Below, piece after piece: positions 1-7,306 of a DNA stretch of 7,306 nt. A program made the position numbers and the translations under genes. The notes under the pieces are model-generated. The model did no database searches. It had not been told where the DNA came from and worked only from the letters and a program-made list of their open reading frames with translations. Position 1 is the first letter of the stretch, and each line of letters begins with the position of its first letter. Source of the stretch: Naegleria gruberi (lineage: Eukaryota); the NCBI GenBank assembly GCA_000004985.1, contig GG739148.1. One strand, given 5' to 3'.

Positions 1-153
1 ACCCAAACCCAAACCCAAACCCAAACCCAAACCCAAACCCAAACCCAAACCCAAACCCAAACCCAAACCCAAACCCAAACCCAACCCAAACCCAAACCCA
101 AACCCAAACCCAACCCAAACCCAAACCCAAACCCAAACCCAAACCCAAACCCA
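1..153. repeat. Telomeric repeat tract shown as the C-rich strand. Units from position 2: 13x CCCAAA, CCCAA, 4x CCCAAA, CCCAA, 6x CCCAAA, then a terminal CCCA. The G-strand equivalent is (TTTGGG)n running toward the window start, which marks a chromosome left terminus.
   Basis: Read directly. A perfect hexamer array begins at base 1 of the window, with the C-rich strand 5'->3' reading inward as expected for a left-end telomere. There are two one-base-shortened variant units at 80-84 and 109-113. The tract ends abruptly at 153, before unique AT-rich sequence. Confidence 0.88.
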
Positions 154-388
154 TCACTTCAATCAACAAATTAAACATGTACATGCTCCATTCGATGTGT
201 AGAGATTGAATATCAAGTTTATTTTAACTTTCATATTCAAGATTTCATCCCTTTCATACCATCTAGTCAACTGAGTAACATGGATGAAAATCTGGAAAAT
301 GACCTCTCTATGAAACACTTCCATCATGTTTAACAACTCAAATAATGTTGTAGAATTCAATTTTAGAGTTTTAAAATGTAATTTGACA
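154..388. repeat. Subtelomeric tandem repeat, copy 0. It is 5'-truncated, covering roughly the last 235 bp of a ~305-bp unit, and is joined directly to the telomere.
   Basis: Motifs in 389-696 recur here at offsets of about 301-309: gatgtgtag (194-202) versus gatgagtag (503-511); atca..tttatt.taact (211-235 versus 519-545); agtcaact (265-272 versus 566-573). Local identity is about 65-75% with small indels. Confidence 0.5.
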
Positions 389-696
389 ATATAGTAAGGT
401 AAAGGTTGATATTTTAAGGTTGACTTTAAGGATTGAAAGGTGAAAATCATGATATCAAAAACATCACTCCAGTCAATAAAACACATATGAAAATGTTGTA
501 AATGATGAGTAGACACCGAATTTATCATTTATTCTAACTGGAAATATCTCTAATATATACTTGGAAGTCAACTCTCTCTATAATGTACAAGTTGTTCCGC
601 CAAGTTACCACTCTCAAATTAAATCATATAATCATGCTCTAAGTCTCTAATAATATATATACTTCAGTTTTCAGACGTTCTAGTGAACATTCCATC
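389..696. repeat. Subtelomeric tandem repeat, copy 1, full unit of about 308 bp. The unit boundary is arbitrary; I anchored it on the conserved 14-mer ATATAGTAAGGTAA.
   Basis: atatagtaaggtaa(a)gg.tgat...aaggttgacttt(g)aaggat at 389-437 repeats at 697-745 (offset 308, about 80% identity over about 50 nt). cgaatttatcatttattctaactggaaatatctct (512-546) matches cgaaaatatcatttatttaatgatttgaaatctct (821-855). agtcaact at 566 matches agtcaatt at 870. Confidence 0.6.
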
Positions 697-910
697 ATAT
701 AGTAAGGTAAGGAGTGATTTATCAAGGTTGACTTTGAAGGATAGGGCAATATTCAATAAGAGAACTACATCCTCAATCAGAAAAATACATATCAATCGAT
801 TGGAAATCATTAGTACATCTCGAAAATATCATTTATTTAATGATTTGAAATCTCTCCTTGACTTCTTTTAGTCAATTAAGACAATTAAGGATGTAACAAT
901 AGAAAAAGTT
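697..910. repeat. Subtelomeric tandem repeat, copy 2. It is truncated by the assembly gap, so further copies may lie inside the gap.
   Basis: Same anchors as copy 1 at an offset of about 304-309. The sequence runs straight into the N run at 911. Confidence 0.55.
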
Positions 911-3900
911 NNNNNNNNNNNNNNNNNNNNNNNNNNNNNNNNNNNNNNNNNNNNNNNNNNNNNNNNNNNNNNNNNNNNNNNNNNNNNNNNNNNNNNNNNN
1001 NNNNNNNNNNNNNNNNNNNNNNNNNNNNNNNNNNNNNNNNNNNNNNNNNNNNNNNNNNNNNNNNNNNNNNNNNNNNNNNNNNNNNNNNNNNNNNNNNNNN
1101 NNNNNNNNNNNNNNNNNNNNNNNNNNNNNNNNNNNNNNNNNNNNNNNNNNNNNNNNNNNNNNNNNNNNNNNNNNNNNNNNNNNNNNNNNNNNNNNNNNNN
1201 NNNNNNNNNNNNNNNNNNNNNNNNNNNNNNNNNNNNNNNNNNNNNNNNNNNNNNNNNNNNNNNNNNNNNNNNNNNNNNNNNNNNNNNNNNNNNNNNNNNN
1301 NNNNNNNNNNNNNNNNNNNNNNNNNNNNNNNNNNNNNNNNNNNNNNNNNNNNNNNNNNNNNNNNNNNNNNNNNNNNNNNNNNNNNNNNNNNNNNNNNNNN
1401 NNNNNNNNNNNNNNNNNNNNNNNNNNNNNNNNNNNNNNNNNNNNNNNNNNNNNNNNNNNNNNNNNNNNNNNNNNNNNNNNNNNNNNNNNNNNNNNNNNNN
1501 NNNNNNNNNNNNNNNNNNNNNNNNNNNNNNNNNNNNNNNNNNNNNNNNNNNNNNNNNNNNNNNNNNNNNNNNNNNNNNNNNNNNNNNNNNNNNNNNNNNN
1601 NNNNNNNNNNNNNNNNNNNNNNNNNNNNNNNNNNNNNNNNNNNNNNNNNNNNNNNNNNNNNNNNNNNNNNNNNNNNNNNNNNNNNNNNNNNNNNNNNNNN
1701 NNNNNNNNNNNNNNNNNNNNNNNNNNNNNNNNNNNNNNNNNNNNNNNNNNNNNNNNNNNNNNNNNNNNNNNNNNNNNNNNNNNNNNNNNNNNNNNNNNNN
1801 NNNNNNNNNNNNNNNNNNNNNNNNNNNNNNNNNNNNNNNNNNNNNNNNNNNNNNNNNNNNNNNNNNNNNNNNNNNNNNNNNNNNNNNNNNNNNNNNNNNN
1901 NNNNNNNNNNNNNNNNNNNNNNNNNNNNNNNNNNNNNNNNNNNNNNNNNNNNNNNNNNNNNNNNNNNNNNNNNNNNNNNNNNNNNNNNNNNNNNNNNNNN
2001 NNNNNNNNNNNNNNNNNNNNNNNNNNNNNNNNNNNNNNNNNNNNNNNNNNNNNNNNNNNNNNNNNNNNNNNNNNNNNNNNNNNNNNNNNNNNNNNNNNNN
2101 NNNNNNNNNNNNNNNNNNNNNNNNNNNNNNNNNNNNNNNNNNNNNNNNNNNNNNNNNNNNNNNNNNNNNNNNNNNNNNNNNNNNNNNNNNNNNNNNNNNN
2201 NNNNNNNNNNNNNNNNNNNNNNNNNNNNNNNNNNNNNNNNNNNNNNNNNNNNNNNNNNNNNNNNNNNNNNNNNNNNNNNNNNNNNNNNNNNNNNNNNNNN
2301 NNNNNNNNNNNNNNNNNNNNNNNNNNNNNNNNNNNNNNNNNNNNNNNNNNNNNNNNNNNNNNNNNNNNNNNNNNNNNNNNNNNNNNNNNNNNNNNNNNNN
2401 NNNNNNNNNNNNNNNNNNNNNNNNNNNNNNNNNNNNNNNNNNNNNNNNNNNNNNNNNNNNNNNNNNNNNNNNNNNNNNNNNNNNNNNNNNNNNNNNNNNN
2501 NNNNNNNNNNNNNNNNNNNNNNNNNNNNNNNNNNNNNNNNNNNNNNNNNNNNNNNNNNNNNNNNNNNNNNNNNNNNNNNNNNNNNNNNNNNNNNNNNNNN
2601 NNNNNNNNNNNNNNNNNNNNNNNNNNNNNNNNNNNNNNNNNNNNNNNNNNNNNNNNNNNNNNNNNNNNNNNNNNNNNNNNNNNNNNNNNNNNNNNNNNNN
2701 NNNNNNNNNNNNNNNNNNNNNNNNNNNNNNNNNNNNNNNNNNNNNNNNNNNNNNNNNNNNNNNNNNNNNNNNNNNNNNNNNNNNNNNNNNNNNNNNNNNN
2801 NNNNNNNNNNNNNNNNNNNNNNNNNNNNNNNNNNNNNNNNNNNNNNNNNNNNNNNNNNNNNNNNNNNNNNNNNNNNNNNNNNNNNNNNNNNNNNNNNNNN
2901 NNNNNNNNNNNNNNNNNNNNNNNNNNNNNNNNNNNNNNNNNNNNNNNNNNNNNNNNNNNNNNNNNNNNNNNNNNNNNNNNNNNNNNNNNNNNNNNNNNNN
3001 NNNNNNNNNNNNNNNNNNNNNNNNNNNNNNNNNNNNNNNNNNNNNNNNNNNNNNNNNNNNNNNNNNNNNNNNNNNNNNNNNNNNNNNNNNNNNNNNNNNN
3101 NNNNNNNNNNNNNNNNNNNNNNNNNNNNNNNNNNNNNNNNNNNNNNNNNNNNNNNNNNNNNNNNNNNNNNNNNNNNNNNNNNNNNNNNNNNNNNNNNNNN
3201 NNNNNNNNNNNNNNNNNNNNNNNNNNNNNNNNNNNNNNNNNNNNNNNNNNNNNNNNNNNNNNNNNNNNNNNNNNNNNNNNNNNNNNNNNNNNNNNNNNNN
3301 NNNNNNNNNNNNNNNNNNNNNNNNNNNNNNNNNNNNNNNNNNNNNNNNNNNNNNNNNNNNNNNNNNNNNNNNNNNNNNNNNNNNNNNNNNNNNNNNNNNN
3401 NNNNNNNNNNNNNNNNNNNNNNNNNNNNNNNNNNNNNNNNNNNNNNNNNNNNNNNNNNNNNNNNNNNNNNNNNNNNNNNNNNNNNNNNNNNNNNNNNNNN
3501 NNNNNNNNNNNNNNNNNNNNNNNNNNNNNNNNNNNNNNNNNNNNNNNNNNNNNNNNNNNNNNNNNNNNNNNNNNNNNNNNNNNNNNNNNNNNNNNNNNNN
3601 NNNNNNNNNNNNNNNNNNNNNNNNNNNNNNNNNNNNNNNNNNNNNNNNNNNNNNNNNNNNNNNNNNNNNNNNNNNNNNNNNNNNNNNNNNNNNNNNNNNN
3701 NNNNNNNNNNNNNNNNNNNNNNNNNNNNNNNNNNNNNNNNNNNNNNNNNNNNNNNNNNNNNNNNNNNNNNNNNNNNNNNNNNNNNNNNNNNNNNNNNNNN
3801 NNNNNNNNNNNNNNNNNNNNNNNNNNNNNNNNNNNNNNNNNNNNNNNNNNNNNNNNNNNNNNNNNNNNNNNNNNNNNNNNNNNNNNNNNNNNNNNNNNNN

Positions 3901-6904: not shown

Positions 6905-6905
6905 T
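6900..6905 (-). promoter_or_regulatory. Candidate poly(A) signal ATTAAA for gene 2 (plus-strand tttaat). It lies 34-39 nt downstream of the gene 2 stop and on top of the gene 1 stop codon, which implies overlapping convergent 3' UTRs.
   Basis: Hexamer read directly, based on a motif match only. Confidence 0.2.
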
Positions 6906-6908
6906 AAA
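6903..6908 (+). promoter_or_regulatory. Candidate poly(A) signal AATAAA for gene 1, overlapping its TAA TAA stop codons.
   Basis: Hexamer read directly, based on a motif match only. Confidence 0.3.
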
Positions 6909-6938
6909 TAGGTGTTTGACAACAAGGAATTGCACAAT

Positions 6939-7306
6939 TTACTTGACTTTAACTCTCATAGCTTCCTTTCTTGCTTGTTTTTCAAATACCATTGTTTGTT
7001 TGAATCTGTGATGAGTATCTAGCATGAGAATGCAAATTTCAGCCCCAACATCATCAAAGAGTGAGTCGATCAAATGTTCATTTTGACCTGTTGCAAATAA
7101 ATCCAAATGATTCTTAACCTTGTCGGACATGTGTTTGCTAAGGTTAACTGATTTGTCGCCTCTTACATCGAGATAATCAGTGTAAATTTCAAAAGCAATT
7201 TCATACTTTTTCTTTTCAATATCGTACAAGTCCTTTTCATGGTATTTCTTCTTCTTCTTTTTATCATTGTCACTGTTTTCACTTGATTCACTATCCAATA
7301 AATATC
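6939..7306 (-). CDS. Gene 2. It is a 3' fragment whose start lies beyond the window end, ending in a TAA stop at 6939-6941. Hypothetical protein, ...YLLDSESSENSDNDKKKKKKYHEKDLYDIEKKKYEIAFEIYTDYLDVRGDKSVNLSKHMSDKVKNHLDLFATGQNEHLIDSLFDDVGAEICILMLDTHHRFKQTMVFEKQARKEAMRVKVK*.
   Basis: The minus-strand ORF is open through base 7306. The M in the supplied track is a TTG (Leu) codon, not a real start. The non-repetitive, charged composition looks protein-like, and the 3 Gln are all CAR. Confidence 0.65.
   Translation of the reverse strand, partial: YLLDSESSENSDNDKKKKKKYHEKDLYDIEKKKYEIAFEIYTDYLDVRGDKSVNLSKHMSDKVKNHLDLFATGQNEHLIDSLFDDVGAEICILMLDTHHRFKQTMVFEKQARKEAMRVKVK

Follow-up and report, generated by a model that had tools for sequence, protein, structure and literature searches.

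The 7,306 nucleotides of Naegleria gruberi contig GG739148.1 (GenBank assembly GCA_000004985.1) analysed here, in the following called the window, are almost certainly a small nuclear scaffold of strain NEG-M which reaches a chromosome end, is read with the standard genetic code and carries a telomere with an only superficial likeness to those of ciliates. A preliminary description of the sequence had taken the terminal CCCAAA array as pointing to Paramecium-like ciliates, in which TAA and TAG encode glutamine, and had set this origin against the apparently standard stop codons of the two genes at the other end of the window, a MACPF gene (gene 1) and a gene for an RGS-domain protein (gene 2). 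This conflict between telomere and code is not real and arose because telomere repeats of the TnGn type were assumed to identify ciliates; N. gruberi, a member of the Heterolobosea within the Discoba, is far from ciliates. Read from the end inward, the scaffold would consist of the TTTGGG telomere, a degenerate subtelomeric repeat with units of 304–310 bp that extends over about 760 bp, a 5-kb gap, the 3′ part of the MACPF gene with a 67-nt intron and the convergent RGS gene. The likeness to ciliate telomeres would come down to TTTGGG being one of the two hexamers made by Paramecium telomerase, with no bearing on the code.

The two genes, both incomplete in the window, are laid out as follows.

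5920–6259, plus strand: last part of the upstream exon of gene 1, the 5′ end of the gene lying inside the assembly gap
6260–6326, plus strand: intron of gene 1, 67 nt, phase 1, spliceosomal (GTAAGC...ATATAG, 18% GC)
6327–6907, plus strand: last exon of gene 1, coding to 6901, with the tandem stop TAATAA at 6902–6907
6908–6938, no strand: spacer of 31 nt between the convergent stops
6939–7304, minus strand: 3′ part of gene 2 (RGS-domain protein), coding 7304–6942, stop codon TAA at 6939–6941, running off the scaffold end

The window holds the 3′ part of gene 1 with 305 codons, the spliced product of which is 100% identical to P0001, an NCBI record entitled 'predicted protein, partial [Naegleria gruberi]'. 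The next match is the N. gruberi paralog P0002, a MACPF protein of 457 amino acids with 43% identity. Pfam MACPF (PF01823) recognises gene 1 itself with E=1.6e-5 and 25.6 bits against a gathering cutoff of 21.5, although the match covers only the C-terminal portion of the domain (profile positions 153–214 of 214), the gap having cut off the rest of the gene. Like the other Naegleria MACPF/perforin-like proteins, among which it has paralogs at 43%, the gene 1 product shows the conserved cysteine positions of the tail, while only its 3′ 305 codons are in the window and any pore-forming role is putative. Gene 2, with 121 codons in the window, matches Pfam RGS (PF00615) with E=3.5e-5, its 24.6 bits exceeding the gathering cutoff of 23.9 (profile positions 41–116 of 117), and its homologs carry PF00615 as well; among them the N. 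gruberi protein P0008 is 67% identical by BLAST across 80% of the query and 63% identical in the multiple alignment. In the homolog searches with both genes, all significant homologs with a named source came from N. gruberi and the others from environmental contigs, with no ciliate relatives among the matches.

As ways out of the perceived conflict, the preliminary description had offered either a lineage that it could not name, in which a G3T3 telomere goes together with the standard code, or an erroneous coding inference. The first alternative is correct, the lineage being N. gruberi, for which TTTGGG has been published as a candidate telomere repeat (PMC3622300). The second is rejected, as homologs confirm the splice junction as well as both reading frames and the NCBI model agrees. 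The 67-nt length given for the intron holds (GT..AG, 6260–6326): in alignment A1 the junction VFPAG/TKRENMK lines up with VFPEGPKRNNMK, AFPEGPKRENMK and VFPAGSKRENMK of the homologs, and the NCBI model of gene 1 has the identical junction and stop. The environmental contig L001 (ENA metagenome, ERZ929261, k127_492485), which derives from a close relative and is 95% identical to window positions 5919–6318, allows a direct comparison across the junction. The exon shares 98% of its nucleotides with L001, differing by a 6-nt indel that keeps the frame and by seven substitutions, six of which hit third codon positions, and the intron shares 88% with a 5-nt indel, a pattern of divergence consistent with that expected of exon versus intron. 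At the other end of the protein, the C-terminus ...CPIVKQV of gene 1 is situated at most two residues from the homolog ends ...CPAIN, ...CPYVQ and ...CPFVQ, and TAA is therefore the true terminator of the gene; the complete MACPF homologs P0003 and P0005 likewise have C-termini that align with that of gene 1.

Stop codon and glutamine codon usage are equally inconspicuous. That both genes terminate at TAA, gene 1 at TAATAA, had been noticed before and is correct (6902–6907 for gene 1, 6939–6941 for gene 2), and the approximately 420 codons said to be free of in-frame TAA and TAG are exactly 426 (305 + 121), with no in-frame TAA, TAG or TGA among them. The earlier statement that all glutamine codons are CAA or CAG also stands, but their number is 17 rather than the 11 given, namely 16 CAA and one CAG (13 CAA and the single CAG in gene 1, three CAA in gene 2), which strengthens the original point. 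If TAA and TAG made up 30–50% of the glutamine codons, a fraction assumed after the preliminary description, 17 of 17 CAA/CAG codons would be found with a probability of 2e-3 to 8e-6. A reading in which only TGA terminates would extend gene 1 by just five codons, so that the open reading frame (ORF) of gene 1 alone cannot separate the codes, which the C-termini of the homologs do; the same reading would extend gene 2 by 49 codons, antisense into the coding sequence of gene 1. Four Naegleria-like contigs (L001, L124, L125 and L126) carry eight genes with 2,377 codons in total, of which 121 are glutamine codons, all CAA or CAG, and the complete genes among them stop at TAA (four) or TAG (one); since gene calling here assumed standard stops, the lack of in-frame stops is partly built in, and the informative point is that the proteins are full-length and colinear with their homologs. 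The window and the related contigs thus show no departure from the standard nuclear code, with TAA ending both genes and glutamine encoded by CAA and CAG. By textbook accounts, Naegleria uses the standard code genome-wide.

The telomere, the feature that had suggested a ciliate, occupies the left end of the window.

1–153, no strand: telomere array consisting of an A, 23 CCCAAA units, two CCCAA units and a final CCCA

The terminal CCCAAA array of the preliminary description is confirmed for positions 1–153 by Tandem Repeats Finder (period 6, 25.8 copies, 97% matches, score 292). It forms the outermost part of the scaffold, with the C-strand pointing outward by its 5′ end and the G-strand TTTGGG running 5′ to 3′ toward the scaffold end, which is the correct orientation for a telomere. 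Paramecium macronuclear telomeres mix TTGGGG with TTTGGG at random; with CCCCAA in none of its 26 units, the array is not of the Paramecium type. The TTGGGG repeats of Tetrahymena and Glaucoma and the TTTTGGGG repeats of Oxytricha and Euplotes are, as the repeat of the window, TnGn-type sequences without the A of the TTAGGG type, but differ from it in the lengths of the T and G runs and belong to the Alveolata rather than the Discoba.

A Paramecium-like ciliate with a ciliate code, in which the two genes would simply be outliers with biased glutamine codons, would have TTTGGG among its two telomere hexamers and would share with the window its AT-rich, compact and gene-dense sequence, with 31 nt between the genes. 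Yet the gene 1 product is fully identical to an N. gruberi protein and the proteins match Naegleria, the intron has 67 nt in place of the about 20–35 nt typical of Paramecium, TTGGGG units are missing from the array, all 17 glutamine codons are CAA or CAG, TAA stands as a stop at the homolog-defined C-terminus and gene 2, if read with TGA as its only stop, would extend over 49 codons into gene 1, which together make such a source extremely improbable. The resemblance to the Paramecium telomere is convergent or superficial. Ciliates with the standard code do exist, for example litostomes and heterotrichs such as Stentor, and such a ciliate with a G3T3 telomere would account for standard stops beside a telomere of ciliate appearance. 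Its probability is just as negligible, as the scaffold is annotated as N. gruberi and fully matches an N. gruberi record, while all homologs with a named source are from N. gruberi, several of the environmental ones co-occur in a single sample and no ciliate was matched. Taking a CCCAAA telomere as a sign of Paramecium-like ciliates is not supported, in view of the N. gruberi proteins, the missing ciliate matches and the existence of TTTGGG-capped contigs with standard code, and TTTGGG is no ciliate marker.

An N. gruberi chromosome end with the standard code agrees with what has been published on this organism. Fulneckova et al. (2013, Genome Biol Evol, PMC3622300) have reported TTTGGG for N. 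gruberi as a candidate telomere repeat, such that the telomere type of the window is already published and the window evidently is among the scaffold ends contained in the assembly screened in that work; organism, hexamer and terminal scaffold position are all alike, without substantive difference. What is added here is the fine structure of the array, with two CCCAA variants and no CCCCAA, and the adjoining 304–310-bp repeat. The N. gruberi genome comprises 41 Mb, of which 57.8% is coding, at 33% GC; its genes have 1.7 exons each and its introns a mean length of 203 bp (PMC8296547, Table 2), and since these statistics fit, the composition of the window (29–37% GC across its real sequence) and its 67-nt intron are unremarkable.

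The position, orientation and regularity of the array suggest a functional, telomerase-made telomere, for which the wording in the literature is 'candidate'. This label, together with the lack of an experimental validation in the literature found, would also be compatible with a CCCAAA tract that is a terminal microsatellite or an artefact of the assembly end, and (CCCAAA)8 occurs internally in many metagenome contigs as well. Such an explanation is nevertheless very improbable. The tract is exactly terminal and correctly oriented, extends over 153 nt with 97% regularity, varies only in unit length as is typical of telomerase slippage and gives way to a classic subtelomeric tandem repeat. When metagenome contigs were scanned for (CCCAAA)8, there were moreover at least 120 loci, 37 of which, among the matches listed, have the array in a terminal position and in the same, correct orientation.

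Real sequence makes up 2,298 of the 7,306 nt of the window, and 5,008 positions (68.5%) are N.

911–5918, no strand: assembly gap of 5,008 N

The gap is the sole join between a left contig (1–910) with telomere and subtelomeric repeat and a right contig (5919–7306) with the two genes. A chimeric scaffold, in which the left contig derives from another organism or locus and was misjoined to a Naegleria gene contig, would be in keeping with this sole connection, but is very improbable, even somewhat more so than a microsatellite or artefact, as TTTGGG has independently been reported as a terminal repeat in the N. gruberi assembly (PMC3622300), the 29% GC of the subtelomere fits N. gruberi non-coding DNA and relatives of both halves are found in ERZ929261. 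This sample contains L001, 95% identical to the MACPF contig, L125, a contig with a paralogous MACPF gene, and L122, 75–81% identical to the subtelomeric repeat, which indirectly supports the same kind of organism on either side of the gap. A misjoin between loci would leave the organism and the conclusion unchanged. Across the gap, L001 (1–2455) covers about 2 kb and contributes the N-terminal half of the MACPF gene.

Some points weigh against the interpretation as an N. gruberi chromosome end with the standard code. The link between telomere contig and gene contig depends on the original scaffolding across the 5,008 N, and that TTTGGG also caps other N. gruberi scaffolds is taken from the 2013 paper (PMC3622300). 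In the literature, experimental proof of TTTGGG as a functional Naegleria telomere, such as BAL31 digestion, a telomeric repeat amplification protocol (TRAP) assay or a telomerase RNA template, was not found. None of the (CCCAAA)8 contigs shares the subtelomere of the window among the at least 120 matches listed. Finally, neither the window nor L001 contains tRNA genes according to a tRNA scan, and the window has no eRF1 gene. An Rfam scan of the window and L001 gave no families.

Between telomere and gap, the left contig consists of a degenerate repeat, in which one longer ORF is located.

154–463, 464–767 and 768–910 (partial), no strand: degenerate tandem repeat, about 2.45 units of 304–310 bp, 29% GC
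163–528, minus strand: ORF of 121 amino acids starting with ATG, located in repeat unit 1 and most likely no gene but repeat DNA in translation

The repeat units have a mean column identity of 62%, and each opens with CATCACT or CATCCT, the telomere joining the repeat precisely at a unit boundary (CATCACT). Two relatives were recovered through a protein search with the 121-amino-acid ORF. Contig L123 (GCA_006365155.1, VFQN01205255.1), with positions 1–502, is 90% identical to window positions 170–671, and L122 (ERZ929261), with positions 1–709, is 75–81% identical to window positions 146–859. The conserved subtelomeric motif ATAGTAAGGTAA..AAGGTTGACTTT, searched as an exact pattern in metagenome contigs, yielded no matches. 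The family of subtelomeric repeats is real, occurring again in two independent assemblies, and a description of Naegleria subtelomeres was not found in the literature.

The ORF itself is longer than expected from shuffled sequences (p about 0.002–0.004), ends 10 nt from the telomere, and its protein matches P0019 with 93% and P0020 with 55% identity. Substitutions at the first, second and third codon positions number 9, 3 and 3 against L123 and 25, 22 and 20 against L122, without concentration at the third position. With no third-position bias, frame-breaking indels and a frame that is broken in repeat unit 2, the ORF was rejected as a gene and is most likely none. A further match to the ORF, P0021 (17 stretches, 26% identity, E = 2.9e-18), was judged to have a repeat-inflated score and not to be a homolog. 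P0021 is encoded on a 14,680-nt ENA contig and has 1,207 amino acids with many near-identical tandem repeats of, by eye, about 55–60 amino acids each.

Inward of the gap, the MACPF gene is situated about 5 kb, by the gap estimate, from the last subtelomeric repeat and roughly 5.8 kb from the telomere tract. With 31 nt between their stops, the MACPF and RGS genes are tightly packed, and their predicted 3′ untranslated regions and polyadenylation signals would have to share sequence or be very short. The RGS core of gene 2 is 63–69% identical to the three longest homologs, including P0008, and 54% identical to the short P0009. The other relatives of gene 2 are environmental proteins, and the C-terminal tails of the homologs vary in length. 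Compared with other RGS-domain proteins, gene 2 is partial at the scaffold end and has a C-terminal tail shorter than in most homologs.

The MACPF family shows some variation in gene structure. The 67-nt intron is not present in the MACPF genes for P0003 and P0005 (L124 671–2131 and L125 1221–2495), which are single ORFs through the junction, such that the presence of the intron varies within the family, between paralogs or orthologs. In L001, the gene caller ran into the unspliced intron, yielding a protein (P0004) with the end ...VFPAGKLCIFKYYCC. The 6-nt indel between the exons (window position 6056, L001 about 2192) gives L001 an extra His-Ile, with KYVHIQSEL compared with KYVQSEL in the window. 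Divergent from the MACPF gene, the minus strand of L001 (197–1396) carries an ORF of 399 amino acids with a TAA stop, which has the look of a membrane protein by eye and for which no Pfam family is recorded in the contig index.

Pure TTTGGG caps are also found on environmental contigs. At least 12 terminally capped contigs (31–39% GC) have stop-free stretches of about 430–1,350 codons under the standard code, and TAA and TAG thus are stops in the organisms from which they derive. About 20 contigs of a single metagenome whole-genome shotgun project, JAESGV01, carry pure CCCAAA/TTTGGG caps in telomere orientation at 24–39% GC, several of them with ORFs that reach 1,349 codons under the standard code.

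JAESGV01 capped contigs: L004, L014, L020, L039, L040, L043, L051, L058, L065, L070, L081, L086, L089, L094, L109

From these caps and reading frames, the JAESGV01 source looks like a protist whose telomere is of the Naegleria type and whose stop codons are standard. Two of the contigs encode long PPR proteins which end in a DYW deaminase domain (PF14432), on L043 at 5671–8631 on the minus strand (E = 3.5e-25) and on L109 at 3557–7603 on the plus strand (E = 1.7e-21), both genes being located 3–6 kb from TTTGGG telomeres. A protein search with a JAESGV01 PPR-DYW protein gave only the query itself and plant PPR proteins at 21–25% identity. Outside plants, DYW-type PPR proteins are known from a few protists, Naegleria included. 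L043 also has, at 1–3762 on the plus strand, a stop-free frame of 1,254 codons which continues out of the telomere tract and by eye looks like a gypsy-like retroelement polyprotein with protease, reverse transcriptase and integrase; if true, a retroelement would have inserted right at a chromosome end.

It is conceivable, although we hold it rather doubtful, that the 304–310-bp repeat is an undescribed, Naegleria-specific telomere-associated element and, separately, that the combination of pure TTTGGG telomeres and standard stops extends to a wider, partly unidentified set of protists, of which the JAESGV01 organism may be an example.

With TTTGGG occurring in Naegleria, a member of the Discoba, the telomere hexamer is a poor taxonomic marker in triage by sequence only, and the inference of a genetic code should rest on stop positions anchored by homologs. 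The result itself has little biological weight; the minor gain is the description of one N. gruberi chromosome end, with its subtelomeric repeat family and the position of a MACPF gene.

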